This document shows positions 6,567-30,802 of a DNA stretch of 49,329 nucleotides, one piece after another. Numbering within the stretch: the stretch's first letter is position 1; every line of letters begins with the position of its first letter. Position numbers and translations under genes: made by a program. Location of the stretch: assembly GCA_900766945.1 (NCBI GenBank), contig CAAFXD010000183.1, forward strand, positions 1 through 49,329. The letters are read 5' to 3'. The DNA is from Clostridia bacterium (GTDB taxonomy: Bacteria; Bacillota; Clostridia; Oscillospirales; Acutalibacteraceae). The notes beneath the pieces were generated by a model. That model worked only from the letters and a program-made list of their open reading frames with translations, had not been told where the DNA came from and made no database searches.

Positions 6567-6588
6567 AGTAAATTTCCTTTCTTATCTT

Positions 6589-14286: not shown

Positions 14287-15918
14287 CTATATGCACACTT
14301 CTTCGTGCCTATGTGTTTTGCTTTTTGGCTCGGTAGTTTCTTCGTCCTCATCGAGCTCGCCGCCGACGATTTCGTTCTCACGCTTATCCACATTGAGCAG
14401 TGCATTGAGTTCGTTTAGCCTTGCGGTTTTGGCTTTAAGTTCTTCTTCCTGATTAAACGGTTTTTCCACATCAGCCTTTGCCGTTTCAAACTGCTTTTGG
14501 GTATTTTCAAGTGTCTGCTCGTTTATTTCCAAACGCTTCGGAAGTCCCTCAAGAGCGTTATCCAAACGGGTAATATTGCCGAAGGTGTCCGTACCAAGCG
14601 ACACGGAATAACCAAGTTCGCCTTTTAGCTTTACTTTGTATTCCTGTGCCAAAGTGTCAAAAGAAAGTTCCATTTGAAATCCACGGTATTCGCCGAGAGG
14701 AACCGGATCGGGACTCGTCATAGCCTGACACGCATCGAGAATTGCATTGCCGGCATCCGCTTTCTCTGAATAGAAAACATCCTTGACCGTCATTCCGATA
14801 AAACTATCATCAAGCGGTTTCGGGTGCTGATTTACTCTCTCCATATCGGATTTCAAGCCCTCTATTGTATCAGTCAATCTTGCGATTTCCTGTGGGAAAA
14901 ACTTGATAATCTTATCTTCAAGAGCATATTTTTCAGAGAGAAAGTTGGACTTTAACAAGCGTAATTTTTGCACGCGAATATCCAAATCCATTTTCTCTTT
15001 AATATGCGGATTGCCTGTCGCAAGCATTTTGATTTCAGCATAGGACAGTGCGGTTTCGTCAATATCCTCGCAGGAACGGACGGGTGATTTACTTGTCATA
15101 ATTTGTGAAGAAAACTTTTGTTTTCCTTCGACAAGCTGATACAGATATGCATCAAAAGTCTGTTCCGTAACATACCTGTATATATCCACTTCGGGATTTT
15201 CATTCCCCTGACGAACTATTCGTCCGAGCCTTTGTTCAAGGTCGGATGGGCGCCAAGGACAATCGAGATCGTGTAAAGCAATAAGTTTGTTTTGCACATT
15301 CGTTCCTGCACCCATTTTTTGCGTAGAACCCATAAGCAACCGGACTTCACCTTTGCGGGTTTTCTTAAAGAGGTCCAGTTTTTTTGCTTCTGTGTCAGCT
15401 TCGTGAATAAACTTGATTTCACTTTCGGGTATCCCGCGCTCAATCAATTTTTTGCGGATATCCGTATAGACGGAGAAAGTGTCATCGCCTTTTGGAGTGG
15501 AAAGGTCGCAAAAAAACAACTGTGCAGCATATTTGTCCTGTCCTTCTTTCCAAATACGGTAGATATTTTCGACGCAGGCATTGAGTTTACTTCCCTCAAA
15601 ATCAGGAAGAGTATCATTGATAAGTCGCTGATCAAGTGCCAGTTTTCTGCCGTCATTTGTGATTTTGAGCATATTATCCACGCTTGCGTCTACCAAACCT
15701 TGCCGCACTCGGTCTGCTCTTTCGGAGAGTTTTGCAACCATTTCCTTTTGCATTTCGGACGGTTTCACGGCAATGTTGTGGAAATTTGCTCTCGGAACCG
15801 GAAGGTTAAGCATATCCGCGGTCTTAATGTCAGCGACTTCTTTGAACATCGCCATAAGTTCAGGCAGGTTGTAGAACCTTGCGAACCTTGTCTTTGCTCG
15901 GTAGCCTGTTCCTTCGGG
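14287..15918 (-). pseudogene. C-terminal fragment of the polyvalent MTase/SNF2 gene, severed by the transposon insertion
   Basis: The open frame continues upstream of the ATG at 15855 as ...PLPEGTGYRAKTRFARFYNLPEL-MAMFKEV with no start codon. It carries helicase motif VI (QRLGRIVRQGN). A 522-aa product from the internal ATG at 15855 remains possible. Confidence 0.8.
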
Positions 15919-15926
15919 GAGCGGTT

Positions 15927-15932
15927 TGTCAA
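15927..15932 (-). promoter_or_regulatory. -35 half (TTGACA) of the circle-junction promoter
   Basis: The minus strand reads TTGACA 8 nt inside the left end. It pairs with TATAAT at 23161-23156 only when the ends are joined. Confidence 0.6.
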
Positions 15933-16117
15933 GATGTTTTCCGCATATTCTCTAAATTAAATTTTTCGGCGGTGGTAATGCCGCCTAAAACCTCCTGCCT
16001 GCAAAGGTCAGAAAGTGCCTTTTCAAGCGGTTTTTTCGCTGTTTCAGCCTGTTTTACGCAGACGATATAGGTCGTGTTTCCAATCCTTAATTCGTAACTT
16101 GAATTTGTGTTTTCCAT
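15929..16117 (-). CDS. tnpW: TnpW-like small protein (62 aa)
   Basis: MENTNSSYELRIGNTTYIVCVKQAETAKKPLEKALSDL... resembles TnpW (RIGxTTYxV). AAAGGAGGG SD before the ATG at 16117. The longer track ORF (to 16297) has no SD. Confidence 0.6.
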   Translation of the reverse strand: MENTNSSYELRIGNTTYIVCVKQAETAKKPLEKALSDLCRQEVLGGITTAEKFNLENMRKTS

Positions 16118-16309
16118 TTTCGTTTTCCCTCCTTTTTCGGTTTTTGCGGTCTGAAAAGAGAAAAGGCGGCTTCGACCTCCGGGTTCTAAATGAAAATCCC
16201 AAGCGTCAAAACCGCCGTTTACTGCCCGAAAAAGAGTATCGGGGCATATTCTCTTTCCCTGTCTAAAGCAAGAGGACAAGAATACATAGTGTCCCATCGA
16301 AAAGGACGC

Positions 16310-17578
16310 TTACCTCTCCCAATCGTCCCTCGATTTTCGTTTCCGTGCCGGCTTCGGCTGCTCTCTTTCCTCTGCCCGTTCCTTTTGCGGGAACAGCGTC
16401 TCGAAGAATGCCTTAACCTTGTCGGGGAAGCGTTGCAAAGCCAGCAGATAGGGCTTCGTAATCTCAACAAGCCGCTCATACTTCTCCGTCACCTCCGCAA
16501 GCCGCTCCTTCACATTGGACAGCTGGGCACTCAAATCCATTGCCTTATTTCGGTAGTAGCTTACGCTCCTCTCCAAGTCGTGGATCTCCGAGCGTGAAGA
16601 AACGCCCTCTTTGGCAAGGGCTTTCAGGCTGTCCAGTTCCTGTTTGGAAACGGTGTACTTGCCTGTGATGCCCTTGCTGCCGAGAGCGTCGATTTCGGCA
16701 TAGGTTGCCGATACCTTGTGTTTTACCTTGACCTCACCGGATACCTCCGCAAGCTCCTTTTTCGCCTCCTTGACCTTCTGCTTTGTCTGGGCAAGGCGTT
16801 CCTTATCTTTTTCTATCTGGAAGTCGAGACTGTCCAAATGCTCCGCCGTACTGCCCAGCTCGCCACGCTCAAAGCCCGTAAATCCCGCCGCCGTCATGTG
16901 TTCAAAAAGCTGGTCTTGGAGGACGGAATAGGACTTTCGGAACACAGGCTTCCCGTACTGGTTGACAGCCTGCTGTCCGTTCTCGTCCAGAACAGGGACG
17001 GTGTTCTTCCACTTTTTCGAGTGGGAGACTTGGTTGATGACTTCCTTGACCGTACCCCGCAGCGCTTCGTCCTTGCACCGTTTCGACCAGCGGATTTCTT
17101 TTCGGACGGTGGGGATTGCAACGATATGGAGGTGGTAATGGTAGACCGGCTTTCCCAGTTCCTCCGACACCGCCTTGTTGATTTCATCGGCGTGCATGAC
17201 CGCCGAGACGATGTTCTCCTCCCCGTAAATCCTGCAGGCAAAGCGGTAGGCTTCCTCATAAAAATGCCTTGCGTACTCATAGCCGCCCCGTTCCTCAAAG
17301 TACCTCGTGTTCACATCGACGACCATTTCATTGAAGCGTATCGCCCCCTCTTTCTGACCCCTCGTGGAGATTTTCCCCTCGTCGATGAGCTTCTGGAAAT
17401 ACTCGTTGTAGGTCAGTCCTCCCGTGTCCTTGTAATGGACATTGAGCGGTATCCGCTCCACATCCACATTGAGATTTGCATAGCTTTCGTTCTTACGCTC
17501 GTTGTGTCTTTCGTTTTTCTGCACCGTCGCAGCGGTGATTCTTTCCACCCGTACAACGCTGAAGTTTTCTTCCGCCAT
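16310..17578 (-). CDS. tnpZ: Mob/Pre (MOBV) relaxase, TnpZ-like
   Basis: N-terminal VVRVERITAATVQKNERHNER, HYHLHIVAIP histidine motif, coiled-coil C-terminus. GGAGGTGA SD. Confidence 0.8.
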   Translation of the reverse strand: MAEENFSVVRVERITAATVQKNERHNERKNESYANLNVDVERIPLNVHYKDTGGLTYNEYFQKLIDEGKISTRGQKEGAIRFNEMVVDVNTRYFEERGGYEYARHFYEEAYRFACRIYGEENIVSAVMHADEINKAVSEELGKPVYHYHLHIVAIPTVRKEIRWSKRCKDEALRGTVKEVINQVSHSKKWKNTVPVLDENGQQAVNQYGKPVFRKSYSVLQDQLFEHMTAAGFTGFERGELGSTAEHLDSLDFQIEKDKERLAQTKQKVKEAKKELAEVSGEVKVKHKVSATYAEIDALGSKGITGKYTVSKQELDSLKALAKEGVSSRSEIHDLERSVSYYRNKAMDLSAQLSNVKERLAEVTEKYERLVEITKPYLLALQRFPDKVKAFFETLFPQKERAEEREQPKPARKRKSRDDWER

Positions 17579-17616
17579 TTACATCACCTCCGATTCTGCG
17601 GAAAGGGAGGGGGAGC

Positions 17617-17674
17617 GGTTACGCAACTTTTTCAAAGTGCGTAACCCACTATGACACTTTCAGCAAGCTGAAAG
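17617..17674. promoter_or_regulatory. Candidate RSA/oriT of the transposon
   Basis: 9-bp inverted repeat GGTTACGCA-N12-TGCGTAACC (17617-17646), whose right arm contains AGTGCGTAA and resembles the MOBV nick core GTGTG/T. A second hairpin CTTTCAG-CAAG-CTGAAAG lies at 17657-17674. Both are directly upstream of the Mob gene. Confidence 0.45.
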
Positions 17675-17758
17675 ATGTCGTGGGCAAGGGCTTTCCCCCC
17701 TTGACCTCCCTTAGTGCGGCTTCCGCTCTGCTTTCCGTGCACCGTTCCCCGGCAGCGC

Positions 17759-18772
17759 TCAAAAAGGCAGCTCGTCGCCGCCCTGCGGCAAAGACCAAAA
17801 CCAACTGAAACGGCGTTTGGTTGACACCACGCCGAGGATTGCTTTTGCCTTCTTTGCCGTCGAACTACTGATGTCCGCTTCACGGAGCTTCGCTTCACAC
17901 TCGGACGCTTCGTGTTCCTGACCGTCCGACAGCAGTTCCCTGAGAAGCTGCACGGCGGCGTCCGTTTTCACATTCGGTCTGCCGCTTTTCTGCGGCATTG
18001 AAGCGAGAAGCTCGTCCGCCGTTTTCTCCGTCTGCCGGATGAAGCGCACGCCGTCTTCGTCAACCGAAAATACAATCGCCATCCCCGTCGGCGCAAGGTT
18101 CGCTTTCTGTTGGACAAGGATACGCTCGTCCTCGCTGTCCTTGCTCCTGCCGATGAGCAGTGCGCTCCTTACCGCCCCCACGATGTCGATGGAGCCGGGT
18201 GTGCGGTAGATTGCTTTCGTGCCGAACATCTTGTTCAGATGGTTGATGACGATGATGGCGCAGCCTGTCTCTTTCGCTATGCGGATCAGGCAGTTAAAGC
18301 GTGGGCGGACTTCATTGGCGGCGTTGATCTGGCAGTCCCCAATATAGGAGGAGAGCGGGTCAAGGATGAAAAGCCTTGCTCCCGTCTCTCGGATAGCGGA
18401 GAGGATACGCCCATCGTCAAAGGTCAGCGGGCTTTCCTTTTCGCTGATGAACAGCAGTCGATTCCTGTCCCCATTCGCCTTGATGAAGCGGGGGACAATG
18501 GTATCATCGGCATCGTCCTCCGTGGTCTGGTAAATGATATTGACAGGCGCAGGCGGCTCGTCCGTCTCCGTAAACGGCAGCGGCTCGCCCTTTGTGAGCA
18601 GGGCGGCGATGGTCAGCATAAAGGTGCTTTTCCCATCGCCGGGGTCGCCCTGCACCAGCGTCACCTTGCCGTAGGGGATAAACGGATACCACAGCCACTC
18701 AATTTCCCTCGGCTCGATTTCGCTCGCCCTGATGATTTCAAGGCTGGCATTGTTCTGATTTGCATTCTGCAT
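17759..18772 (-). CDS. tnpY: RepA/AAA_25-like P-loop ATPase, TnpY-position
   Basis: Walker A GDPGDGKST and Walker B LFILDPLSS. GGAAAGGAG SD. Confidence 0.7.
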   Translation of the reverse strand: MQNANQNNASLEIIRASEIEPREIEWLWYPFIPYGKVTLVQGDPGDGKSTFMLTIAALLTKGEPLPFTETDEPPAPVNIIYQTTEDDADDTIVPRFIKANGDRNRLLFISEKESPLTFDDGRILSAIRETGARLFILDPLSSYIGDCQINAANEVRPRFNCLIRIAKETGCAIIVINHLNKMFGTKAIYRTPGSIDIVGAVRSALLIGRSKDSEDERILVQQKANLAPTGMAIVFSVDEDGVRFIRQTEKTADELLASMPQKSGRPNVKTDAAVQLLRELLSDGQEHEASECEAKLREADISSSTAKKAKAILGVVSTKRRFSWFWSLPQGGDELPF

Positions 18773-18826
18773 TTTGTTCTCCTTTCCGTCCTTGCCGGGA
18801 CATAAAAAAGCCCCTGCTTTCTGTCA

Positions 18827-18847
18827 ATTTTCGGGGCGATTTTCGGG
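18827..18847. repeat. Tandem 9-bp direct repeat (minus-strand CCCGAAAAT x2, 12-bp period) abutting a TTGACA
   Basis: ATTTTCGGG occurs at 18827-18835 and 18839-18847 on the plus strand. The minus-strand TTGACA at 18827-18822 is followed 17 nt later by a weak TATGTC, upstream of the TnpY-like gene. Confidence 0.4.
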
Positions 18848-19089
18848 CATTTGCTCCTTTTTAACCGCTAAGAAAGCAAGGGCTATGTATTCGTATTCAG
18901 TTGTAGGGATAGAATATATCGCAGGGTTTGGGGAAGAAAAAAGCGTCCAAGTTGTTACGCTTGAACGCTGGGTATTAGGCTATATATACTTGCAATCCTT
19001 ATTCTTCAGAGTTTACATTCTATAATGGCATAAAGACAGACTTTTTTACTCTAAAAACAGATACACTAACGCTTCCCATTGAGCAAAAA

Positions 19090-20124
19090 TTAAACACCGC
19101 TTCTCAGCTTTTCCCAGTCTTTATTTCCCTGCATATAATTAAAGGTTTCATCTCCAAGAGACTTCAAAAGCTCTTGCTTTAAGCCGACTGAAAAATTATG
19201 GTCAACAGATTTTAGCACCATATGTTGATAAAGCTTAGATTTTGTAAAATCACCTATCGAATCCACGCTATCTAATATTTCCTGCATAAGTTGTGCAGTC
19301 CATGCAACATCTCTTTCCCAAACTGCAACATCCAGTCCAAAACAAACCTCATTATATTTGCCCATTTCAAATGCATCCGCAGCAGAGGACGAAACTTTAA
19401 CCAACTTTTTTGGCATTTCATGATTATCATCTTCCATATAAAGGATGCGCAAATCATTTAATACCATCTGTATGTGCTGATACCCGCTATATATCAACTC
19501 CTCATATGCACGATAGGCTTCCGTCCGTTTCCCTGTTTTACTGTTTACAAGTGCTTCCTTGCGTTTACGCTCTGGATTCTCCAGAGAGAAATAATCCAAA
19601 TATTGAGCTGCTTTTTCATAATCCTCTTTCCGAAAAAACGCATGGAACAGCGAATCCGCTGCTTGATTACGAATCCGTTCGTCCTCTGAGAGTAAACATC
19701 TCTCATACCATCCGAATATCGCATTATCATATTTGTCCTCGTTTGGGAGCTCCATTGCCATTCGCTTCGCATCCAGAATGACTGCCGCCTGCCAAATCAG
19801 TTTCTCGCAATTAGGATATTCCTCAATTTTTTTCTTTACGGAAAGAAATACATCATGGAAGTCTTTGTTTTCCAAGTCCTTTTGAATTATCAATAGATAT
19901 TGGTTAATTTCTTCGTCTGTTAGATTATCTTTAAAGGACAGAAGTTCATCTGTGGTAATGCCAAGTAGCCGTGCAATAGGGGCAAGCAAAGCAACGTCCG
20001 GCAGTGTGTTGCCCCTTTCCCATTTGTTGACAGCAGGGGTAGTTACGCCGAGACAAGTGGCCATTTCCTCCTGTGTCATTCCTTTATTTTTTCTATATTT
20101 TTTGATGACATCTCCGATTGCCAT
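19090..20124 (-). CDS. XRE-family HTH regulator with a long helical-repeat (TPR-like) C-terminal domain, RRNPP-like architecture
   Basis: MAIGDVIKKYRKNKGMTQEEMATCLGVTTPAVNKWERGNTLPDVALLAPIARLLGITTDELL is a canonical HTH_3, followed by about 280 aa that I read as helical (TPR-like). AAGGAGATGG SD before the ATG at 20124. The segment is AT-rich relative to the rest of the transposon. Confidence 0.7.
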   Translation of the reverse strand: MAIGDVIKKYRKNKGMTQEEMATCLGVTTPAVNKWERGNTLPDVALLAPIARLLGITTDELLSFKDNLTDEEINQYLLIIQKDLENKDFHDVFLSVKKKIEEYPNCEKLIWQAAVILDAKRMAMELPNEDKYDNAIFGWYERCLLSEDERIRNQAADSLFHAFFRKEDYEKAAQYLDYFSLENPERKRKEALVNSKTGKRTEAYRAYEELIYSGYQHIQMVLNDLRILYMEDDNHEMPKKLVKVSSSAADAFEMGKYNEVCFGLDVAVWERDVAWTAQLMQEILDSVDSIGDFTKSKLYQHMVLKSVDHNFSVGLKQELLKSLGDETFNYMQGNKDWEKLRSGV

Positions 20125-20167
20125 GTTTAACCATCTCCTTCGCGATTTCTGGATCGACCCTATGTAT

Positions 20168-20196
20168 AGTATAGCGGATTGGAGTTCAAAAAACAA
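20168..20196 (-). promoter_or_regulatory. Predicted promoter of the XRE-TPR gene
   Basis: The minus strand reads TTGTTT (20196-20191), a 17-nt spacer, then TATACT (20173-20168). Confidence 0.35.
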
Positions 20197-20426
20197 TTGA
20201 ATGCGGGTTAAATGTCGGGAATTATTTTTTACCAGTAGTCAACTTTTAATGTGTGAGTATATATTCTGAATATCTATGTACGCACCGCAAAAGTTGCTAC
20301 GGTGTTGTTTGCGGCACTAAAGCTACCACCTTCGACAATACAGTCGCAATTATAACTTCTTGAATACTACCCAAAAAGGAAAAGCCGCCGTCTGTTGACA
20401 GCGACCTTTCCCCGTGAAACAGCGGT

Positions 20427-20810
20427 CTAATTGTAAATCAAATCGCTGTAAACTACTTCCTCGGCACGGTTGCGGATATTGTTCATAGCCTGTGTCCATT
20501 TCATGCCGTCCTCCGCTTTGAGTGCTTCCGTTACGCCCTCTTTTTCGGCAAGCTGTTTTACCAACCGGAAAAGCATATCCTCGGCTTCCTCGTTCAGTTC
20601 GGCAAGGTAATCGTTCAGCCTGCCGCTTGTCAGAAGCTCGGTATAGAGAGCCTTTCTATGCTCCTGGATATACCGCAGATGTCGCTGTCCCCATATCCCG
20701 ATAGGACGCTGTTCCTGCCCGTCCCCGAAGTCCGGCAGCATTACCTCCGTTTCCATCTCTACGCCGCCGACCGATTGATGAATGACTGATTTCCTGTACT
20801 TGATTTCCAT
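20427..20810 (-). CDS. tnpV: TnpV-family protein
   Basis: IGIWGQRHLRYIQEHRKALYTELLTSGRLNDYLAELNEEAEDM...EGVTEALKAEDGMKWTQAMNNIRNRAEEVVYSDLIY fits the TnpV pattern. AAAGGAGAG SD. The gene sits next to the serine recombinase gene. Confidence 0.7.
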   Translation of the reverse strand: MEIKYRKSVIHQSVGGVEMETEVMLPDFGDGQEQRPIGIWGQRHLRYIQEHRKALYTELLTSGRLNDYLAELNEEAEDMLFRLVKQLAEKEGVTEALKAEDGMKWTQAMNNIRNRAEEVVYSDLIYN

Positions 20811-20896
20811 AGATTTTCTCTCCTTTCCGATTTTGCGCCCCTACGATGGGACACTATCACTTCTTACTTTCTTGCTTTTACCGACTAAAGCGCAAA

Positions 20897-22966
20897 TCAC
20901 ACCACCTCCCGCAGTTTTTTCCCGGCTTGTTTGTTATGCCACCATTCAAGACTGTACTCATTATGATGTTTCTTGCGGCATTCCTCGGAGCAAACGGTCT
21001 GACCGCTGCTGTTCGGCCAGAACAACTCGCCGCAGACAGCGCATTTCCTCTGACGGTAATAGTGATCGCCACGCTCGGCTTCCCGTTCCGCTTTCTTCCC
21101 CGCCTGTCCGGCCTGATAGCGGCACTCTTTTGAGCAGAACACCTGACGGTTGCTTGCTGGGATAAACTCCTTGCCGCAATGGGGACATACCTTTTTCCGA
21201 GCGATTTCGCCGCCGTTTTCAGCGATTTTCTTCGCCTTGCGCCGTTCCCTTGCGGCTTTTTCCCTCGCCCTCTGCCGGGCTAACTTCTCCGCTGCAAGCT
21301 GTTCCTCCTGCGCCTTTATCTCGGCAAGTTCTTCCTCGCTATATGCGATATTTACCTGCCCGACATAATTGAAATAAATGTCAACCTGCTGTGTGCGAGC
21401 ATTTCCCACACCCTGCGCTTCGTAAACGACGATTTTATCCACAAGCTCACGGAACATCGTATCGCTCACCTCAGCGGGAGACTTGAATTTGCGTATCAGG
21501 GCGATAAAATGCTCGATGTCAGGCGGCTTTTCCTCGTTCTCGGACAGTTCCTTTTCCAGTTCTCCTATCTTTTCCTCAAGCTCCGCCTGTTCGTCATCGT
21601 ACTGCTTCATAAGCTGTTTGTACTGCCTTTCGGGGAGCAGGCCGGACATCAGGTTTTCATACAGACCCCGCACAAGCCCGGAAAGCTCGCCGTACCGTTT
21701 CTTCATCCGCTTCAAATCCGCTTCCGCCTGCTGCGGCTTCTCCGTCCGTCTTTCAAGCCACAGCCTTTGCAGTTCCGAAGCAAACGCTTTTTCGTCCTTC
21801 AGCACAAGTCTTGAAATTCTCTGGACGGTGGATAAGAGTATCGCTTCCACGGCTTTTGCGCCGATACCGTGCGCTGTGCAGGAATCAACTCTGCTTGCGT
21901 ACCCGCCGCAGCGGAAAGAATACTCGATGGAGCCGTCTTTCCTGCTGTAATGGGTTTGCAGGGTCATTCGTCTGCCGCAGTCGGCGCAGTAGAGATAACC
22001 GCTTAACCGATGGTAATGGCTGCCCCACGGTGCGCTTCTCCCGGCTCGTTTCCTTGTACGCTGAACGCTGTCCCAAAGCTCCTGTGAGATGATAGCTTCG
22101 TGGGTGTTCGGGAATACATACTGTTCCTCGGCGGGCGTTTCCTTTCGTTTGTGGAGCTTGAAGTTCGTCCCCACGGACTTGTGGAGGATGGTATGACCGA
22201 GGTATTCCTGCCGGTCCAGTATCTTTCTTACCGTTGACACGCCCCAAAGGTAAGGGTCGGAATAATTTTTCCCTCTGGACTGCTCCGTGTGGTATTTCTC
22301 TGAATAAGCGGCGGGTATCAGCACCTTTTCCCCGGTGAGCTGCTCCGCTATCGCCCGTGGGCTTTTGCCCTCGCTGGCAAGCAGGAAGATACGCTTTACC
22401 ACCTCGGCGGCAACCGGGTCAACCACAAGCGTCTGCTTGTCGCCGGGAAGCCTGTTGTAGCCATAGGGGATACTGCCGGAGCAGCGTTTCCCATCCCTCA
22501 TACGGGCGTCAAAGACAGCCTTTATCTTGTTGCTGGTGTCCTTTGCGTAAAACTCGTTCATAATATTAAGGAACGGGGCAAAGTCGTTGTCTGCGGCGTT
22601 ATCGCTGTCAATGCCGTTATTGATAGCGATGAAGCGCACATTTTTCTGAGGGAAAAGGACTTCCGTATAAAATCCCACTTGCAGGTAATTCCTGCCAAAT
22701 CTGGACAGGTCTTTTACGCAGACCGTCTCGATTTCCCCTGCTTCAACAGCGGCAATCAAGGCTTGAACGCCCGGTCTGTTGAAATTCACTCCCGAATAAC
22801 CGTCATCGGTAAAGTGGCGGATATTCGTCAGCCCATTCCTGTGGGCGAAATCTTCCAGGTATTTCTTTTGATTGGTGATCGAGTTCGATTCGCCCACAAG
22901 GTCATCGTCCCTCGAAAGTCTTTCATAGAGTGCTGTCACCCTTGATTTTCCTGCTGTTTTCGGCAT
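20897..22966 (-). CDS. tnpX: Large serine recombinase, TnpX-like (689 aa)
   Basis: ALYERLSRDDD (catalytic Ser), DDGYSGVNFNRPG, KDLSRFGRN. Long coiled-coil, and C-terminal Cys-rich zinc-ribbon repeats (CPHCGKEF..CSKECR; CAVCGELF..CSEECR). Confidence 0.9.
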   Translation of the reverse strand: MPKTAGKSRVTALYERLSRDDDLVGESNSITNQKKYLEDFAHRNGLTNIRHFTDDGYSGVNFNRPGVQALIAAVEAGEIETVCVKDLSRFGRNYLQVGFYTEVLFPQKNVRFIAINNGIDSDNAADNDFAPFLNIMNEFYAKDTSNKIKAVFDARMRDGKRCSGSIPYGYNRLPGDKQTLVVDPVAAEVVKRIFLLASEGKSPRAIAEQLTGEKVLIPAAYSEKYHTEQSRGKNYSDPYLWGVSTVRKILDRQEYLGHTILHKSVGTNFKLHKRKETPAEEQYVFPNTHEAIISQELWDSVQRTRKRAGRSAPWGSHYHRLSGYLYCADCGRRMTLQTHYSRKDGSIEYSFRCGGYASRVDSCTAHGIGAKAVEAILLSTVQRISRLVLKDEKAFASELQRLWLERRTEKPQQAEADLKRMKKRYGELSGLVRGLYENLMSGLLPERQYKQLMKQYDDEQAELEEKIGELEKELSENEEKPPDIEHFIALIRKFKSPAEVSDTMFRELVDKIVVYEAQGVGNARTQQVDIYFNYVGQVNIAYSEEELAEIKAQEEQLAAEKLARQRAREKAARERRKAKKIAENGGEIARKKVCPHCGKEFIPASNRQVFCSKECRYQAGQAGKKAEREAERGDHYYRQRKCAVCGELFWPNSSGQTVCSEECRKKHHNEYSLEWWHNKQAGKKLREVV

Positions 22967-23126
22967 TATTTGCCCCTCCTTTCCTATGTAATCTGTTTTG
23001 CGATTATGGGATTACTCCCTCCACTAATAGGAGAAAAAACGGGGTAAAAGCGGAACTGTTTTTCAAAAAATATCTGAAAAATTTTCGTCAGCCCCAAAAC
23101 CGCCTTTGACTGTCCTTTTTGCAATT

Positions 23127-23150
23127 AAAAAAGGATGATTTCATCATCCT
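23127..23150 (-). terminator. Stem-loop plus U-tract just inside the right transposon end
   Basis: The minus strand reads AGGATGAT-GAA-ATCATCCT followed by TTTTTAATTG. The new TGA stop of the truncated host ORF (23150-23152) abuts the stem. Confidence 0.5.
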
Positions 23151-26100
23151 CAAAAATTATAGCCCTCGGGCGTCAGCTCAACCGCCGTAACGGTTTCGCC
23201 GAAAGTAGAAGCCCACGCATCGAAGTGTTGCAGATTATTTTTCACGAGCGTGTCGTACTGCAAATATCGCTGAATGGTATATAGTTCTACCATAGAATTG
23301 GAAATCGGCGTGCCTGTTGCAAAGACCGTTCCACGCCCTCCGGTTATCTCATCAAGATAGCGGCATTTCATAAACAAATCGCTGGATTTTTGCGCTTCTG
23401 TCTGTGCGATACCACCGACATTTCTCATTTTTGTGTAGAGAAAGAGGTTCTTGTAGTAATGGCTCTCGTCGATAAAAAGCCTGTCAACACCGAGTTCCTC
23501 AAAGGTCACAACATCGTCTTTTTTAGACTGGTCGTTTAGCTTGTCGAGCTTCTGCTTGACAGATTTTTTTGTGCGTTCCAACTGCTTAACGGAGAAGTTG
23601 TCTCCTCGGTTATGCTTCAAGTCCGCAAGCCCTTGTGTGATTTCTTCCAACTGTTGTTCAAGAATAACTCGCTGCCGTTCAATGCTCATCGGGATTTTTT
23701 CAAACTGAGAATGTCCGATGATAATAGCATCATAATCGCCGGTAGCAATCCGACCGCAGAACCTTTTACGGTTTTTGGTTTCAAAGTCTTTCTTTGTAGC
23801 CACCAAAATATTAGCGGACGGATAGAGCTGCAAGAACTCCGACGCCCATTGTTCGGTAAGGTGATTTGGAACAACAAACAGCGATTTACTGCATAAACCG
23901 AGCCGTTTCGACTCCATAGCAGCCGCCGTCATTTCAAAGGTTTTGCCTGCGCCGACTGCGTGTGCAAGGAGCGTATTGCCGCCGTAAAGGATATGCGCCA
24001 CAGCATTTCTTTGGTGTTCTCGAAGTTCTATTTCGGGGTTCATACCATTAAAGGTAATGTGGCTACCGTCATACTCACGGGGACGAATGCTGTTGAACTT
24101 TTCGTTGTATATCTTACAAAGTTTTTCTCTGCGCTTAGGGTCAGACCATATCCAATCCTGAAAACCTTGCTTGATAAGTTCCTGCTTTGACTGAGCGATT
24201 GCGGTTTCTTTTTTGTTGAGTACCGCTTTCTTTTTGCCCTCATCGTCCTCGATATAATCGAAGATACGCACATCTTTCAAATTCAGCGTTTCTTCAATAA
24301 TTTTATACGCATTGATTCGTTTCGTCCCGTAAGTGCTGTATGCTTTGACATTTCCTTTGTCGTAGGTTTTGTTCTCAATATTCCACTCACCTGTATACGC
24401 CGAAAAGTGTAATTTGATATACAATTTTGAATAGTTCGGGGTACCCAAAAACTCAAATATAAACTGCTCTACAATCTCAGGCGGTAGCCAAGTTGCACCA
24501 AGACGAACGGAAATTTCACTTGCCGTCAGGTCTTTCGGCTGCACCTTTTGCAGCGCTTCTACATTGATACTGTAATCTTTTGGTGAAAGCTGTGCGGATT
24601 TTTTTGCCCAGGCGAGCTTCTCACGGACATTGCCGGAGAGATATTCGTCAGCCATAAGATACTTTGCTTCGGTACTGTTCCCGTACCCGTACATCGGGTT
24701 TAAAAAGATAACACCTTTCAGGTCGGCAAAGATTTCCTCCTCGGTTTTGCCTGTAAGCTCGCACATATATTCCATATCAATGCAGGCTTTTTCGCCCATA
24801 GATACGGCAAGCGCTTCGCTGGCAGTATCAACCGAAGTAACAGGGGTATGGGGTTTAATTGTCCTTTTATAGAACATATCCGCTTTCTTTTCCAGAGTCC
24901 CGTCATCGCCCAAGACTTCGAGAGCCGATAACAATGAGAACGAGCTGTCCTGTGAGAAAGCGGAAGAATTGGCACGGCTGTTTATGAGACCGTACTTCGC
25001 CGTAAAGGTATCATAGAGGCTGTTCAGCTTTTCCTGCTCAGCCTTAATTGCCGAGTCGGGATAATCTTCGGTCTGCAACTCAATCAGGTTCCTGACGCAG
25101 TCACGGATTGCAATCATACCCTTAATGCGGTTTTCTGCGGTGGCAGAAACATCAACGGGAGCCATACGGCTGTTTTCACGGAAATAGATTTTGCCGTCCA
25201 CAAGCGTATAGGAAAAGTTTCTCACGGTCGGATCGGCGGGAATGGAATTATCTTCTTCGGTGAGTTCATCTTCCACTTCATAAGCCGTAATCTCACCGTG
25301 AATGTTTGCGACGGCTTCACTGAGCTGCTCTGCAAGGTCAGCGCCCTCATACGGTACACAGGAGGGTTCGGGACCGAAACGCCCCGATACCATTTTCATC
25401 TCACCGAGTATCATTTCGGGATGCTCTACAAAGTAGCTGTTCATCGCAATGCCGTTCTCATCAGTGCCGAGATGCACCCAGTCCGGCTCAATATCTACAA
25501 TGCGGTCACGCTTTTGCAGTATAAGAATATCCGAAACGACTTCCGTTCCGGCATTACCCTTGAAGGTGTTATTCGGCAGACGAATTGCACCGAGCAGGTC
25601 GGCTCTCTGTGCGATATACTTGCGGACTGCGGGATTTTCCTTGTCCATCGTTCCTTTGCTCGTAATGAGTGCCATAACGCCGCCCGGTCGGAGTTTATCA
25701 AGGGACTTTGCAAAAAAGTAGTCGTGGATCAGGAACTTGTGCTTGTCGTATCTCTTGTCGGGAACTTTGAAATCCCCGAAAGGCACATTGCCCACAACGG
25801 CGTCAAAGAAGCTGTCGGGGAGATTTACTTCCTCAAAGCCTTGTGCGGCAATAGAGGTTTTTTGATAAAGCTGCTGTGCAATACCCGCCGAAACGGTATC
25901 AAGCTCTACGCCGTAAACCTTACTTTCCTGCATTGAGTCCGGCAGCATACCAATAAAGTGACCGATGCCACAGGACGGCTCCAAGATATTTCCTTCTCGG
26001 AACCCCAACTGCTCCATAGCCTTATACACGGCTTTTATAACCGTAGGCGGGGTGTAAAAAGCCGTCAGGGTGCTTTCTCTTGCCGACTCATATTCTTCCG

Positions 26101-29100
26101 GTGTCAGAATGTTTTTCAGCATCGCATACTCGGTGTGCCAAGCTCCCATTCGTTCGTCAAAGGCTTCGGGAATACCGCCCCAACCGACATATCTCGACAA
26201 GATTTTCTGCTCATCAGGTGTGGCAAATCGGTTTTCCTCCTGACATCTTTTCAAGACCGTAATCGCAGCATAGTTTCGGTGGAAACGCTCTTTTTTGTTT
26301 ACCTCCGTAATCTCGTTGTTAGCAAGATTAAAGTTGTGTCGCTCGGACATTGGAATTTCAGGGTGCAAGTCACAGGACTGCACCTTGCTTTTCTTTGGCT
26401 TTTCCCAAGCGGGAACGATGGGAACGATAGTCTGTTCAGCCATATCAACTGCTGTTTCAAGATACGGACTGTCAATAATCTCGACGCCCTGCGGGGGCGA
26501 ATCAAGTTGAGTAATAAAGTACTGCGGAATAGTAGTTCCGTCCCTGTCCTTATACAGAACAATTTTCATCGGAACGCCGTAGTAATTTTCCTCTTTAATA
26601 TCCTTTTCAAACTGATAAGGACTTGTGTATTCGATACTCTCACGAACACGACCGTCTGTATGAAGGTAATCAATTCTGCCGATAGGCTTCGACTGTACCG
26701 GTTCTTCCTTGTTTGTTGATTCGATAGAAAGAACCTTACGCTCATCTCCCTCAACGGCTGATAGAACAAGGTCGAAACCTCTGTCGGTCAGCATATTCAT
26801 ATAGGTGTTCAAACGGTTTTGCGGGAAACCCACCATAGGAACTCTCTGACTGTCGCTTACCGCGCGGGAAGTCATCACAAGGTCAAGAGTTTCAGCCACC
26901 GTTTTTGCATCATCATTGTAGGCTTCAAAGAAGTCGCCGACCTGATAGAACACAAGGCTGTCAGGATTTTCGGCTTTTACCGCAAGATATCCTCTGTACG
27001 GTTGCATTACACGGTTGTCCTTAACAGGAACGCCGTTATGTCCGGAAAGCTCTGTGAACTCTTTTAAGAGTTCATCGCTGATACCGAGAACGCCGCCGTT
27101 ATCTTCAAAGACAAAGGCTTCTTCCACAAGGAACTTGTAGAAGTCTTGACCGTGCCACTCATTGCCCATACTGTCAGTTGCGACAAGACCATTCTTATCA
27201 TAGTCAAGCGAAATATCGTCATTTTTGAGTCTTGACAGTACTTCATAAAGCGTATCAATTTCTGTTTGCCTAATTGTTGGCTCACGCATTTGGTCAAATA
27301 TATCATAGTAAATATCTGACCCGCGCTCGGAAACAGGAGTAATTAAACTCAATTGATTTTGGGCTTCAGCAATCATATACCCCATGTTTTTATCAAGCCT
27401 ACCAATAACATCAGGTTTAGGCTCCGAATAAACTTCCAACATAGAATTGAAATCCTCAGTACCGTAATCCACAAGCTCGGTATAAGCATTTTGCTCAAGG
27501 TATTCAAAGAAACTTTTAGCATCACTCGTATTCTCACTTGCTTCTACTATAAGTGGATAAGTAAAGTCCATTATTACAAACTGTCCTTCGGAAAGAGAGT
27601 CAGGGTTGTAATAAATCGCTCTAAACATTTCTCTGGACGGATCGTTGAAAATATATTCCTCACGCCTGATAGGTGTAGTGTTGTGATTATTAAAGGTGAC
27701 TTTCAGGTGGTCATTCATCGGGTTTTCCTGCACCTTTTGGTCGAACTCTGCACGGCTCATTTCCTTATTGAACAAAGGAAACTGCGTATCATAGAGCATT
27801 ACCCGGTCATTGTCAAAGGACAGAATTTCATACTCGTTTGCACCGATATAGACGGTGTTGCCAAGATGATATTCATATCTTTCGTTGCTCGGTTCAGGCT
27901 CTTTCTTTTCGGGCGGTGCAGTAGAAAGGATTTCTCGCTTTCTGCGTTCCTCTGCGGCTTCGATTCTGCGAATTTCGTGTTGCTCAAGCCACGCAGGATA
28001 GAGTTCCTTTTCTTTCGGGTTCAGGTATCTATCCATTTTGATAAGCTCAGAAATGCGCTTTTCAACCTGATTCCAATTTAGAAGCACTTTGACTTCTTCG
28101 CCGTTTACATTCTTCGAGATTTTGATGCCTTTGCCATCGTGCATTTCATCAATGCCCGTTCCGGTAATGACGGGGTAAGAACCGCCCCAACCGTATTCAT
28201 TTTTCAAGAAATCCACATTTTCTTTCTTTGAAAGGCTCTTTTGAAGCTGCTCATAAATGCGGAACTTTCCCTCCGACACGCCGCTTCCACGGGTGAGAAC
28301 AGCGTCGATAATTTCCTGAGAAAAGGAAAAAGCAGAGGGTTTTGTTACCTCTGCTTCGTAATCGAGTATTAAGCTCATCTGCCCGTCCATGGAGGGCAAT
28401 GGCTTCATTGTATCCTGAAGCTCGCCTAAAAGACGCATTGCTTCAAAATGTTCGGCAATAACACCCCAGTCGTAAAAGCTCTGCTTTGTACGACTTAAAT
28501 AGCTGCCCTCCCAAAGCTGAAGCACATTCTGATAAGTCTTGTAGCCGACTCGTCTGCCGTCACTGAGTATCAGTTCAGTATAATCGTTATTGAAAATACT
28601 TTGTATATAAGAAGTCCGGGCAGTCTCGTCAGCGGTTGCTTCAAAGAATGCCCGGATCTCGTCTTTTGTGGCTTTCAGGTGGGGTGTGGTTGCAAGGATT
28701 TCTCGAATAGTATCATCGTTACCGAAGAACGGCAGGCTTCTATCCTCGTTACTTCGGTCGTAATACTCTAAGCGAAGATTACTTCCTTCATCACGATTTC
28801 CTGAACTCGGCTCTTCAGGTTGTTCATCTTCCGAACCCAACTCATCATATCCGCCGCTTTCAGGCTCTCGGTCAAGCCTTCCTTCGCCGCCATTTCTTTC
28901 GTCAGGCGTTCCTCCATTTCGGTCGCCGTCTGTTCGATCTCCGCCAGATGCTCGCTCAGCTTGCAACTCGTCAGGAGATTGTAGTACAGCACCTTGCGGT
29001 TCTCTTTCAGGTACTTCGCTCTCATTCGAGAGTAGCGTCCCATCGGCGCTTCCGGCTGTTCCGGCAGTACCAAGTTGGGAAGTCGATAATCGCCCTGCAT

Positions 29101-29965
29101 CGTGTAAGTCAGTTTGTTCATTTTTTGAACTCCTTTCTGCATTTTCGATTCTGACGGTATTATAATCCTGTTTTTGTTTTTCTGCAAATGTGCGATTTGA
29201 ACTTTTTTCTGCAATTTGCAGATTTCGGATAGTTTTTGATATTTCCTTCAATGCCATTCCCACAATATCACTTGTAGCAAATCCAAGGGCGTTCAGTGTC
29301 TGCGGCGTGTTGAAGTTAACAACATTCTCAAAATCTTCCTGCCCAAAATAACTTTCGGCATCAATACCAAGTCTTACCATTATCATATACGCTACGCTGT
29401 TGGTAACAACTTTTCTGTATATGGAGGAAATATTGTCCTCGTCCAGTTCCTCCAAGAAGCTGTTGTTTACCGAGTAGAGCAAATCACGGGTATAATCAGG
29501 AAGATTGTCCTCGGTGGCATTTTTCGCCGCACTCATAACTGCATCCGCAAGGCTTCGGCTGTTATCCAGTGTTCCAAAGGTGCTTTCAAGAGTTTCAATG
29601 ATTTCCTGCTCATATTCCGGCTTCATCTCCCATATCGGCACGGGGCGGGAATGTTCACTCGGATGTGTGTCAGAAATATCGAAGTAGTAAATAAGCCGCT
29701 GGCGTTTTCTACTAACATCGTCAAGAACCGCAATGCCTGTTGCACCTTTATTAACCCATCTGCCGAAAGTTTTATTCCAGCGCTCAATTTCAAGAACTGC
29801 GGTAGCATCCGGTCGCTGTGCGAACACCAAAAGCTGTTCATCAAAGCGGAGTTTATAGTTTCGGCAGGCGGAAGTTAAAAAGGCTTCCCAATTTTGCGGA
29901 GAGGATATGACCGTCTTGCAGGTACGGTCATACAGTTCGGAGATAAGGTCATACTTGCGAGCCAT
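23150..29965 (-). CDS. Polyvalent conjugative-element protein (ArdC-N / linker / MutS-I-like / N6-adenine MTase / SNF2 helicase N-lobe), 3'-truncated by the transposon
   Basis: One open frame of about 2271 codons. ATG at 29965 with a GGAGG SD 8 nt upstream (the track start at 29968 is a TTG). It ends ...TAVELTPEG-YNF*, and the last 3 codons plus the stop are transposon-derived. Confidence 0.85.
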   Translation of the reverse strand: MARKYDLISELYDRTCKTVISSPQNWEAFLTSACRNYKLRFDEQLLVFAQRPDATAVLEIERWNKTFGRWVNKGATGIAVLDDVSRKRQRLIYYFDISDTHPSEHSRPVPIWEMKPEYEQEIIETLESTFGTLDNSRSLADAVMSAAKNATEDNLPDYTRDLLYSVNNSFLEELDEDNISSIYRKVVTNSVAYMIMVRLGIDAESYFGQEDFENVVNFNTPQTLNALGFATSDIVGMALKEISKTIRNLQIAEKSSNRTFAEKQKQDYNTVRIENAERSSKNEQTDLHDAGRLSTSQLGTAGTAGSADGTLLSNESEVPEREPQGAVLQSPDELQAERASGGDRTDGDRNGGTPDERNGGEGRLDREPESGGYDELGSEDEQPEEPSSGNRDEGSNLRLEYYDRSNEDRSLPFFGNDDTIREILATTPHLKATKDEIRAFFEATADETARTSYIQSIFNNDYTELILSDGRRVGYKTYQNVLQLWEGSYLSRTKQSFYDWGVIAEHFEAMRLLGELQDTMKPLPSMDGQMSLILDYEAEVTKPSAFSFSQEIIDAVLTRGSGVSEGKFRIYEQLQKSLSKKENVDFLKNEYGWGGSYPVITGTGIDEMHDGKGIKISKNVNGEEVKVLLNWNQVEKRISELIKMDRYLNPKEKELYPAWLEQHEIRRIEAAEERRKREILSTAPPEKKEPEPSNERYEYHLGNTVYIGANEYEILSFDNDRVMLYDTQFPLFNKEMSRAEFDQKVQENPMNDHLKVTFNNHNTTPIRREEYIFNDPSREMFRAIYYNPDSLSEGQFVIMDFTYPLIVEASENTSDAKSFFEYLEQNAYTELVDYGTEDFNSMLEVYSEPKPDVIGRLDKNMGYMIAEAQNQLSLITPVSERGSDIYYDIFDQMREPTIRQTEIDTLYEVLSRLKNDDISLDYDKNGLVATDSMGNEWHGQDFYKFLVEEAFVFEDNGGVLGISDELLKEFTELSGHNGVPVKDNRVMQPYRGYLAVKAENPDSLVFYQVGDFFEAYNDDAKTVAETLDLVMTSRAVSDSQRVPMVGFPQNRLNTYMNMLTDRGFDLVLSAVEGDERKVLSIESTNKEEPVQSKPIGRIDYLHTDGRVRESIEYTSPYQFEKDIKEENYYGVPMKIVLYKDRDGTTIPQYFITQLDSPPQGVEIIDSPYLETAVDMAEQTIVPIVPAWEKPKKSKVQSCDLHPEIPMSERHNFNLANNEITEVNKKERFHRNYAAITVLKRCQEENRFATPDEQKILSRYVGWGGIPEAFDERMGAWHTEYAMLKNILTPEEYESARESTLTAFYTPPTVIKAVYKAMEQLGFREGNILEPSCGIGHFIGMLPDSMQESKVYGVELDTVSAGIAQQLYQKTSIAAQGFEEVNLPDSFFDAVVGNVPFGDFKVPDKRYDKHKFLIHDYFFAKSLDKLRPGGVMALITSKGTMDKENPAVRKYIAQRADLLGAIRLPNNTFKGNAGTEVVSDILILQKRDRIVDIEPDWVHLGTDENGIAMNSYFVEHPEMILGEMKMVSGRFGPEPSCVPYEGADLAEQLSEAVANIHGEITAYEVEDELTEEDNSIPADPTVRNFSYTLVDGKIYFRENSRMAPVDVSATAENRIKGMIAIRDCVRNLIELQTEDYPDSAIKAEQEKLNSLYDTFTAKYGLINSRANSSAFSQDSSFSLLSALEVLGDDGTLEKKADMFYKRTIKPHTPVTSVDTASEALAVSMGEKACIDMEYMCELTGKTEEEIFADLKGVIFLNPMYGYGNSTEAKYLMADEYLSGNVREKLAWAKKSAQLSPKDYSINVEALQKVQPKDLTASEISVRLGATWLPPEIVEQFIFEFLGTPNYSKLYIKLHFSAYTGEWNIENKTYDKGNVKAYSTYGTKRINAYKIIEETLNLKDVRIFDYIEDDEGKKKAVLNKKETAIAQSKQELIKQGFQDWIWSDPKRREKLCKIYNEKFNSIRPREYDGSHITFNGMNPEIELREHQRNAVAHILYGGNTLLAHAVGAGKTFEMTAAAMESKRLGLCSKSLFVVPNHLTEQWASEFLQLYPSANILVATKKDFETKNRKRFCGRIATGDYDAIIIGHSQFEKIPMSIERQRVILEQQLEEITQGLADLKHNRGDNFSVKQLERTKKSVKQKLDKLNDQSKKDDVVTFEELGVDRLFIDESHYYKNLFLYTKMRNVGGIAQTEAQKSSDLFMKCRYLDEITGGRGTVFATGTPISNSMVELYTIQRYLQYDTLVKNNLQHFDAWASTFGETVTAVELTPEGYNF
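23153..24031 (-). other. SNF2/DEAD helicase N-terminal lobe of the polyvalent protein
   Basis: Walker A GAGKT is encoded at 23939-23953 (verified codon by codon). DESH box at 23459-23470. Confidence 0.8.
23156..23161 (-). promoter_or_regulatory. -10 half (TATAAT) of the circle-junction promoter
   Basis: The minus strand reads TATAAT 4 nt inside the TCGGG junction, facing the recombinase gene. In the integrated state the hexamer 17 nt upstream is CGGTTG, so there is no -35. Confidence 0.6.
25469..26251 (-). other. N6-adenine DNA methyltransferase domain of the polyvalent protein
   Basis: Motif I EPSCGIGHF at 25955-25981 and motif IV GNVPFG at 25775-25792. Both were verified codon by codon. 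Confidence 0.8.
26759..27007 (-). other. MutS domain-I-like (mismatch-binding N-terminal fold) segment
   Basis: YRGYLAVKAENPDSLVFYQVGDFFEAYNDDAKTVAETLDLVMTSR....VPMVGFPQNRLNTYMNMLTDRGFDLVL parallels the MutS N-terminus (QY..iK...pd.llfFR.GDFYE.F..DA......L.i.LT.R....PM.G.P......Y...L...G..v). Confidence 0.55.
28768..29121 (-). CDS. Embedded TnpV-like ORF (117 aa) in a different frame of the same strand as the giant ORF
   Basis: The ATG at 29121 is preceded by AAGGAG (29135-29130) with an 8-nt spacer. MNKLTYTMQGDYRLPNLVLPEQPEAPMGRYSRMRAKYLKENRKVLYYNLLTSCKLSEHLAEIEQTATEM...EGLTESLKAADMMSWVRKMNNLKSRVQEIVMKEVIFA is clearly paralogous to the TnpV at 20427-20810. Confidence 0.7.
   Translation of the reverse strand: MNKLTYTMQGDYRLPNLVLPEQPEAPMGRYSRMRAKYLKENRKVLYYNLLTSCKLSEHLAEIEQTATEMEERLTKEMAAKEGLTESLKAADMMSWVRKMNNLKSRVQEIVMKEVIFA
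29669..29911 (-). other. ArdC-N-like domain at the N-terminus of the polyvalent protein
   Basis: LLVFAQRPDATAVLEIERWNKTFGRWVNKGATGIAVLD fits the ArdC N-terminal ssDNA-binding pattern (Q.p.At.v..f..W...gr.VkkGekgi). Confidence 0.55.
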
Positions 29966-29980
29966 CAATAACGCCTCCTT

Positions 29981-30768: not shown

Positions 30769-30802
30769 AATTTCCTCCTAACTATATAAGTAACATTCTT
30801 TT

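Follow-up and report, generated by a model that had tools for sequence, protein, structure and literature searches.

We describe a nested gene pair in a 49,329-nt contig (CAAFXD010000183.1) of a Clostridia bacterium of the family Acutalibacteraceae; this whole stretch is called the window in what follows, and by its gene content it is part of a conjugative element. A small gene of the TnpV family, tnpV, lies within the linker-coding segment of a giant ArdC-N/SNF2 polyvalent gene, on the same strand and in another frame. Sequence comparisons make it very probable that the pair is functional, with two proteins encoded by the same DNA. The parts of the pair are as follows.

23150..29968, minus strand: giant polyvalent open reading frame (ORF), truncated, 2272 codons, encoding an ArdC-N-like domain, the linker, MutS-I, an N6-adenine methyltransferase and the N-lobe of an SNF2 helicase.
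29129..29968, minus strand: N-terminal ArdC-N-like single-stranded DNA (ssDNA)-binding domain, giant codons 1-280, recognized by tblastn to ArdC-annotated plasmid genes.
28769..29122, minus strand: linker, giant codons 283-400, an acidic G/E/S/D/R-rich alternate-frame translation of tnpV.
28768..29121, minus strand: nested tnpV, 117 codons closed by TAG, offset +1 from the giant frame, with a full-length Pfam TnpV match.
29130..29137, minus strand: Shine-Dalgarno (SD) sequence GAAAGGAG of tnpV, 8 nt 5′ of the ATG, read as Glu-Arg-Ser in the giant frame.
29159..29197, minus strand: promoter-like box inside the giant ORF, found by a consensus scan and by its frozen synonymous sites.
14287..15918, minus strand: C-terminal part of the giant gene, displaced, with the helicase C-lobe and the tail; placed by alignment to a Monoglobus homologue and by Pfam Helicase_C.

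In the mechanism that we propose, ribosomes coming from the giant start would read straight through codons 283-400, giving a disordered acidic tether that links the ArdC-like ssDNA-binding domain to the MutS-I, methyltransferase and SNF2 helicase parts. Ribosomes entering at the internal start, GAAAGGAG followed by the ATG at 29121, would read the +1 frame and yield a basic, folded TnpV of 117 aa. The mRNA for tnpV would be the long transcript or, more likely, one from a TTGCAG-17-TATAAT box ~40 nt upstream. Selection would keep the amino acid sequence of TnpV and, in the giant frame, mainly continuity (no stops, no frame-shifting indels), which would be kept by barring T-ending TnpV codons before codons that start with AA, AG or GA. 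That both products are actually made, and that the promoter-like box fires, we infer from the sequence.

The ORF list gives a minus-strand frame open over 28768..29214, in which the tnpV ATG occupies 29121-29119. This start is 847 nt from the giant start, an offset of +1; tnpV begins within giant codon 283 and ends at codon 400/401. A Pfam search with the product matched TnpV (PF14198) over model positions 1-111 of 111, with E = 3.4e-44 and 149.8 bits, the cut-off (gathering score) of the family being 27 bits. Third positions of the 117 codons are G in 57, C in 27, A in 20 and T in 13, that is 72% G/C, and GC content is 0.51-0.58 across 28775-29074 versus 0.36-0.49 on either side. A second, free-standing TnpV is encoded at 20427-20810; its identity to the nested product is 41% over 104 aa (E = 3e-30). 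The initial annotation, made before any database search, had drawn this layout: a 117-codon ORF with ATG 29121, on the same strand as the giant ORF and one frame off it, covering giant residues 283-400, preceded by AAGGAG and an 8-nt spacer, richer in GC than its flanks, dominated by G/C-ending codons, and encoding a paralogue of the 20427-20810 protein. Each of these points is borne out by the figures above, with AAGGAG at 29135-29130, and the TnpV-profile search that it had suggested gave the full-length match.

In the prototype Tn4451, TnpV is a small protein with a transposon gene of its own, typically beside a TnpX-type large serine recombinase. At 117 aa the nested product fits the family size of ~110-130 aa, but it has no adjacent recombinase and is embedded in another gene; a separate gene beside a serine recombinase is what the 20427-20810 copy presents.

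The giant ORF has the composition of a polyvalent protein, with MutS-I, methyltransferase and SNF2 ATPase domains in one polypeptide (Pfam MutS_I, 3.4e-18; Eco57I, 4e-6; SNF2-rel_dom, 6.4e-8; ResIII, 1.8e-8; also Methyltransf_25), and its location is that of one too, on a conjugative element near type IV secretion system (T4SS) and leading-region genes. Intact homologues measure 2422-2554 aa. Residues 1-280 gave no Pfam or NCBIfam match, while tblastn matched them, with E down to 1e-9, to plasmid genes annotated 'ArdC-like ssDNA-binding domain-containing protein' or 'ArdC family protein'; residues 401-820 gave no credible match to Pfam or NCBIfam. The ORF as called mechanically begins at TTG 29968, and since all homologues start MARKYD the true start is probably ATG 29965.

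The initial annotation had also called the overlap the G/D/E/R-rich low-complexity stretch of the giant protein. The linker translation is indeed G/E/S/D/R-rich, with an isoelectric point (pI) of 4.1, and giant residues 259-429 were modelled with a predicted local distance difference test score (pLDDT) of 22-27 and zero secondary structure. In the giant frame, then, the overlap is predicted to yield a disordered, acidic tether that connects the N-terminal domain with the remainder of the polypeptide. Stand-alone ArdC proteins of ~280 aa (Cytobacillus, Metabacillus, Rhodococcus) stop where the linker starts, and no TnpV is nearby.

Related loci were collected in two ways. A protein search with giant residues 1-520 returned 1558 relatives, of which 20 were aligned (61-85% identity). 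One genome per bacterial species was also scanned, which gave 532 loci with relatives; the best 80 of these 532 were fetched, and all counts out of 80 refer to them. They come from Lachnospiraceae, Oscillospiraceae, Acutalibacteraceae and other families, with 56-85% identity. Selection statistics use 48 non-redundant sequences, <97% identical to one another.

TnpV is found at the same position, in the +1 frame, in 80/80 loci, at 58-96% aa identity, so that the openness of the TnpV frame in homologous polyvalent genes, a check put forward in the initial annotation, came out in its favour. In 77 loci the gene measures exactly 117 codons before its stop; the other three (L019, L072 and L030) deviate only at one end. 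The giant frame has no stop within the overlap in any of the 80 loci, its N- and C-terminal flanks are mutually in frame in all of them, and the alignment of 20 relatives has zero indels in the linker stretch. In L030 (4186-4210) the giant gene ends at residue 399, four codons past the normal TnpV stop, and the TnpV C-terminus is altered to …VIFASTLYSL, a rearrangement or insertion breakpoint exactly where the overlap ends. In L072 a foreign N-domain is joined inside the TnpV N-terminus.

The two frames differ in what has been kept. Averaged over pairs, sequences differ by 0.233, 0.195 and 0.409 at the first, second and third positions of TnpV codons. Substitutions thus peak at TnpV position 3, the reverse of what the giant frame would predict, which makes TnpV the frame selected at the protein level. 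Amino acid identity is 0.68 for TnpV, 0.70 for the N-flank and 0.71 for the C-flank, with 0.48 for the linker translation. For the giant frame we computed the expected number of stops with the TnpV protein fixed and synonymous codons redrawn from flank codon usage: ~8 are expected, the probability of zero is ~4e-4 per sequence, and zero were observed in 48/48 sequences. A stop can enter the giant frame only if a TnpV codon ends in T and the next one begins with AA, AG or GA; before codons of this kind, 0 of 1762 TnpV codons end in T, versus 589 of 3806 elsewhere. The share of T at third positions (T3) is 0.30 in the flanks. On these figures chance is excluded as the origin of the open giant frame over tnpV.

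A two-frame synonymous comparison, likewise suggested at the outset, agrees. In a synplot-type profile, giant-frame synonymous diversity is 0.43-0.59 over codons 1-250, falls to 0.24-0.35 in codons 251-280 and to 0.07-0.18 over codons 281-400, and is back to 0.41-0.59 from codon 401, with a dip to 0.29-0.38 at 531-550; overall, it drops from ~0.5 to ~0.13 over the overlap. These limits identify the suppressed region as the nested ORF plus ~30 codons upstream. Synonymous diversity in the TnpV frame is 0.395 (0.33 at sites where a stop is possible, 0.42 elsewhere) versus ~0.5 in the flanks, so that, apart from the need to avoid stops, the linker frame is a small burden on TnpV. What selection keeps in the linker frame is mainly continuity, against stops and frameshifts, and only weakly the amino acid sequence. 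Taken across the homologues, evolutionary support for the maintenance of both frames is very strong, and the same-strand dual coding proposed in the initial annotation is supported, the linker being the alternate-frame translation of tnpV.

More distant relatives came from PLSDB plasmids, which were searched with the N-domain alone and with TnpV; the TnpV profile was then run on all forward frames. Every giant gene inspected had a TnpV in the +1 frame directly after the N-domain, with N-domain identity down to ~25-30%. Pfam scores of the nested TnpVs in these plasmid or ICE homologues are as follows.

Monoglobus: 145 bits.
Subdoligranulum, two plasmids: 142 and 76 bits.
Cohnella: 106 bits.
Clostridium botulinum pCDC3875: 91 bits.
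Clostridium perfringens: 82 bits.
Virgibacillus: 76 bits.
Bacillus thuringiensis pMC183: 63 bits.
Streptococcus suis pID32563-SS1: 54 bits.
Ruminococcus albus pRUMAL02: 31.5 bits.
Listeria pLIS15: 28.7 bits.

The giant frame has zero stops over tnpV in 12/12 nested copies (these 11 homologues and that of the window) versus 1-14 stops in the equivalent frame of seven free TnpV genes. A conservative within-gene codon shuffle gave P ≤ 0.007 in 6 of the 12 nested lineages. Because nesting is present in every sampled ArdC-N/SNF2 giant gene across Clostridia and Bacilli, it is ancient, and judged from these genes it is a hallmark of the ArdC-N-to-SNF2 fusion genes of Bacillota. The initial annotation had spoken of a captured TnpV cassette; its view of the linker as tnpV read in another frame stands, whereas a recent local capture does not, given nesting that persists down to ~25-30% N-domain identity. 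A plasmid of Aerococcus tenax (L092, 2953-6692), unannotated there in its record, has a TnpV of 24.9 bits, below the cut-off; the N-domain ORF stops ~30 codons after it and the rest of the giant gene is in the third frame. This copy is probably a decaying nested TnpV.

TnpV might be the only functional product, ArdC-N and the downstream parts being separate genes and the open giant frame a by-product of G/C-ending codons. Such an account can point to T3, which is low (0.15-0.18, typical of the overlap) in 6/7 free TnpVs too, and to nested copies that are singly non-significant in the shuffle (Cohnella, 0.13; Subdoligranulum, 0.49; R. albus, 0.13). But low T3 is the outcome that stop avoidance itself would give, and six lineages are singly significant under the same conservative test. 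The overlap is stop-free in the giant frame in 80/80 loci and 12 other nested copies and has stops in 7/7 free TnpVs. Separate genes would also have to explain flanks that share one frame throughout, without any intervening indel, and at codon 401 there is no conserved SD and start codon for a downstream gene. We consider a by-product improbable.

The nested gene has its own initiation signals. The SD motif GAAAGGAG at 29137-29130 is followed by an 8-nt spacer and the ATG, and GAAAGG[A/G]G, 8 nt and ATG recur at this fixed spacing in 78/80 loci; the remaining two (L019 and L072) have an equivalent SD and ATG and a slightly different N-terminus. Inside the SD, the Arg codon of the giant frame is the rare AGG without exception in the 48 homologues. 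An SD and ATG at the TnpV N-terminus were present in 11/11 distant homologues inspected.

These signals bear on whether TnpV could be reached by programmed +1 ribosomal frameshifting, which would give an ArdC-N-TnpV fusion with no independent start. The same-strand +1 layout would suit it, as would the TnpV frame of the window, which is open for 31 codons 5′ of the ATG (ORF 28768..29214). Against it, the SD and ATG are conserved at the TnpV N-terminus in every lineage, and in most loci a stop 21-66 nt 5′ of the ATG, in L032 directly before it, interrupts the TnpV frame. No conserved slippery motif was noticed in the alignment, and RNA structure near the nested start was not significant (minimum free energy -13.6 kcal/mol, z = -1.4). 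We hold frameshifting to be very unlikely.

There is little chance, too, that an old insertion left the TnpV frame behind as a relic without expression, or that this ORF arose by chance, the linker frame alone mattering. In favour of this, several annotation pipelines leave TnpV out; yet its full-length Pfam match persists where giant N-domains share only ~25-30% identity, substitutions are periodic in the TnpV frame, opposite to the giant-frame prediction, the length, start, SD and stop of tnpV are all conserved, and TnpV is conserved like the folded domains, the linker translation less so. Suppression of synonymous variation by an RNA or DNA element (structured RNA, recombination site or repeat) instead of a second frame can be given almost no weight: an argument for it is the upstream 13-nt box AATCGCAYAWTTG, whose nucleotide sequence is conserved and which might bind a protein instead of forming part of a promoter, but the suppressed region is exactly the 117-codon ORF, with 3-nt periodicity, an Rfam scan of 27500-30700 gave no match at E ≤ 0.1, no repeats were found in 28500-29400, and the fold z-score is -1.4.

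Transcription of tnpV from within the giant gene is suggested by the promoter-like box. It begins with AATCGCACATTTG (29197-29185) and comprises a -35 TTGCAG (29187-29182), a 17-nt spacer and a -10 TATAAT (29164-29159), with 10/12 consensus matches; it lies ~40 nt 5′ of the nested ATG, and the predicted transcription start is near 29152. Among the 48 homologues, ATCGCA..ATTG (with the -35 TTG) and TAnAnT are invariant with zero indels between them, the conserved form being TTG-17-TAcAAT, and indels of 3-6 nt are confined to the stretch between the -10 box and the SD. Codons frozen at synonymous sites are Arg CGC, Ile ATA and Tyr-Asn TAC AAT. We have moderate confidence that the TTGCAG-17-TATAAT box is a promoter for tnpV. 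The 13-nt box AATCGCA(C/T)A(T/A)TTG at its upstream end (29185-29197, minus strand; also in L001-L081 and L085) is nucleotide-invariant, synonymous sites included; overlapping the putative -35, it could be an operator or other protein-binding site.

Several points weigh against a functional pair as we propose it. The giant gene is broken by an insertion in this window, and the full polyvalent protein is therefore not made here. Because the linker formed part of the tblastn query used to rank the 80 loci, the ranking could have favoured copies without interruption; selection of the plasmids used just the N-domain, but only 12 giant-type genes among 151 matching records were inspected. Amino acid-level selection on the linker is weak, and the contribution of the second frame is a tether, not a domain. 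The promoter reading draws solely on the consensus match and the frozen synonymous sites, the box coincides with conserved giant-frame residues (NRII and DYN), and it was not recognisable in AT-rich distant homologues. As for TnpV itself, Foldseek against PDB and BFVD found no structural relative at E < 1.

An AlphaFold2 model of TnpV, from 33 sequences, has a pLDDT of 82 and shows a helical bundle preceded by a beta-hairpin (residues 6-15). The protein is basic (pI 9.0); it matched no NCBIfam family and, among PHROGs, only a family of 'unknown function'. An Xis-like role in excision has been postulated for TnpV. The family is common to conjugative elements and to the mobilizable elements that parasitise them, and we infer that TnpV acts in transfer or establishment of the element. 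Our guess is a small nucleic-acid-binding accessory or regulatory factor.

Annotation pipelines give TnpV or the giant gene, never both. The NCBI Prokaryotic Genome Annotation Pipeline called a 'TnpV protein' in Monoglobus and Cohnella and truncated or omitted the giant gene, though frames of 2554 and 2086 codons are open. The opposite choice was made in S. suis, C. botulinum, C. perfringens, Listeria, B. thuringiensis, R. albus and Virgibacillus, where the giant gene alone is annotated. Where metagenome calls include TnpV, the giant gene is started 1.2-4 kb downstream or is not called. The conflict can be seen at L081 8175-15839, L083 7956-14216 and L098-L101 ~5164-7600, and the gap is sometimes filled with spurious antisense ORF calls (L083 8280-8843; L099 6453-7334). 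Most database TnpVs of the nested type sit on contigs of <1 kb, in which the giant ORF is cut. Since gene callers must pick one frame, gene catalogues of conjugative elements carry a systematic error here.

Long same-strand nested genes with both frames selected are textbook cases in small phages and are very rare and contested in bacterial DNA. Among the closest known likenesses is comS, a gene of 46 codons out of frame within srfAB of Bacillus subtilis, which lies inside a folded domain of a nonribosomal peptide synthetase and occurs in a narrow Bacillus group; we know of no free-standing homologues of it. Like tnpV, comS is a small gene wholly inside a giant multidomain gene, on the same strand, in another frame and with its own start. 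Unlike comS, nested tnpV has 117 codons, belongs to a widespread Pfam family, overlaps a disordered linker and is conserved across classes of Bacillota. In phages, lambda Rz1 lies within Rz, and phiX174 B within A and E within D, with both products functional; such overprinting belongs to compact small genomes, and the embedded gene is usually young and lineage-specific. These pairs share with tnpV the same-strand, out-of-frame, fully embedded arrangement. They differ in that the host of tnpV is a conjugative element of 40-50 kb or larger, with no obvious size limit, and in that here the embedded frame encodes a folded family protein and the host frame a low-complexity one.

Antisense or alternative-frame overlapping genes proposed in Escherichia coli and Pseudomonas (e.g. 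PMC8850804, PMC7103648) are mostly antisense, young and narrow, with expression support and a weak evolutionary signal. The tnpV overlap resembles them in being long, non-trivial and excluded by annotation pipelines, and is their reverse in that its evolutionary signal is very strong and deep and that it is known here from sequence alone. Overprinting and nested genes are thus known as a phenomenon, and the instance of tnpV in a polyvalent gene appears to be undescribed: we found no description of it in the literature on TnpV, on polyvalent or ArdC-SNF2 proteins and on nested genes, a coverage that was not exhaustive. The polyvalent proteins of Firmicutes conjugative elements were described by Iyer et al. 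(2017, PMC5512222), a paper with 0 occurrences of 'TnpV' and 'overlapping'. Our host gene shares with their ArdC-N proteins MutS-I, methyltransferase and SNF2 ATPase and, by its tblastn matches, probably the N-terminal ArdC-N, and likewise adjoins genes for a single-stranded DNA-binding protein (SSB), an LPD28 protein and the T4SS. They handled the segment after ArdC-N as inter-domain sequence, whereas here that segment also encodes TnpV. The free TnpVs of Tn4451/Tn6104-type transposons and of integrative mobilizable elements (IMEs) in snf2 (PMC3158075, PMC9815147) are homologous to the nested one (PF14198, 36-44% identity); unlike it, they are separate genes, usually beside a TnpX-like recombinase, with stops in the giant-equivalent frame, and the nested copy has no recombinase.

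The nested pair is unusual in its age, its breadth and the use of the second frame as an inter-domain tether. An overlap of 354 nt that extends from Listeria and Bacillus plasmids to gut Clostridia and to integrative and conjugative elements (ICEs) of Streptococcus, and whose comparative signature is unusually clean, would be a strong point of reference. It would also illustrate a seldom documented mechanism, in which the domains of a fusion protein are joined by reading an existing small gene in another frame. TnpV would be a core, co-inherited part of an anti-restriction/establishment gene in a very large family of Firmicutes conjugative elements, and the link to TnpV-bearing IMEs that target the same gene makes the function of TnpV and the preference for snf2 directly testable.

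How the nesting arose is open to two readings. In the first, an ardC-like gene and a downstream gene would have been fused when a tnpV that already lay between them was read through; this fits the pair, because one frame encodes a folded family protein and the other a disordered tether. The second, that the nested state is the ancestral home of the TnpV family and that free TnpVs of Tn4451-type transposons and serine-recombinase IMEs are escapes from it, we regard as possible but doubtful. It is suggested by a neighbor-joining (NJ) tree, by the stop deficit and low T3 of free copies and by a fold without known relative. In the tree, a simple NJ of 117 columns with weak deep support, free TnpVs fall within the diversity of the nested ones, and a bipartition at 73% separates a deep, all-nested group. 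Three of the seven free TnpVs have a stop deficit in the giant-equivalent frame: the 20427-20810 gene of the window (minus strand; 1 versus 6.1 expected, P = 0.001), L085 17119-17511 and L093 2489-2839, the other two values being 2 versus 5.1 and 3 versus 6.0. Together with low T3, the deficit may be a relic of a former nested state. Elements that bear free TnpVs rely on conjugative elements for transfer and often integrate in the same snf2 gene; if the escape reading is true, the parasite element would use TnpV, as a shared factor, to tap into or imitate the programme by which its host ICE is transferred or established. Pairwise identities of N-domain, TnpV and C-region (L001-L080, giant codons 1-630) correlate weakly, with a Spearman coefficient of only 0.26-0.35, and TnpV against either flank is no different in this from N-domain against C-region. 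By these correlations the elements with the giant gene are recombinational mosaics, and for this reason a co-divergence test cannot date the nesting or settle its origin.

The insertion that splits the giant gene in the window is itself a TnpV-bearing element, with the following main features.

15919..23152, minus strand: integrative mobilizable element splitting the giant gene, ~7.2 kb, boundaries approximate (see 23150-23165 and 15905-15920).
20897-22966, in the inserted element: TnpX-like large serine recombinase (Pfam Resolvase, Recombinase, DUF4368).
20427-20810, minus strand, in the inserted element: free-standing TnpV.
16310-17578, in the inserted element: Mob_Pre relaxase (pfam01076).

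The element also encodes a helix-turn-helix protein and an AAA_25 ATPase. Residues 2017-2552 of the Monoglobus homologue align to 15918..14311 with 76% identity, and the giant gene thus resumes at 15918. The TnpV at 20427-20810 is homologous to the nested one, as first annotated, but it is no member of the nested system, being part of this ~7.2-kb insertion. IMEs of the serine-recombinase/TnpV/Mob_Pre type are reported to integrate specifically in the snf2 gene of S. suis ICEs, for reasons not known (PMC9815147), and with its recombinase, Mob_Pre, TnpV and insertion in an SNF2 gene the present element fits a serine-recombinase IME in snf2 (IME_Class_6-like). The 11-bp terminal repeat reported for the S. 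suis IMEs (PMC9815147) was neither enriched nor located at the insertion ends here.

Genes of the conjugative element in the window encode SpaA/TED adhesins, SSB, an LPD28 protein, DpnD/PcfM and a primase, and further genes a MobA/VirD2 relaxase, a VirD4-like coupling protein, a VirB4-like ATPase and an M23 peptidase. A stand-alone LPD28-domain protein gene and the SSB gene (29981-31207, minus strand) lie directly upstream of the giant gene, a cluster of leading-region/establishment type. In L099 a group II intron reverse transcriptase (11548-12354; RVT_1, Intron_maturas2) follows a shortened SNF2 gene and appears to be another insertion into the giant gene; an intron insertion in the giant gene has likewise been reported for one S. 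suis ICE.

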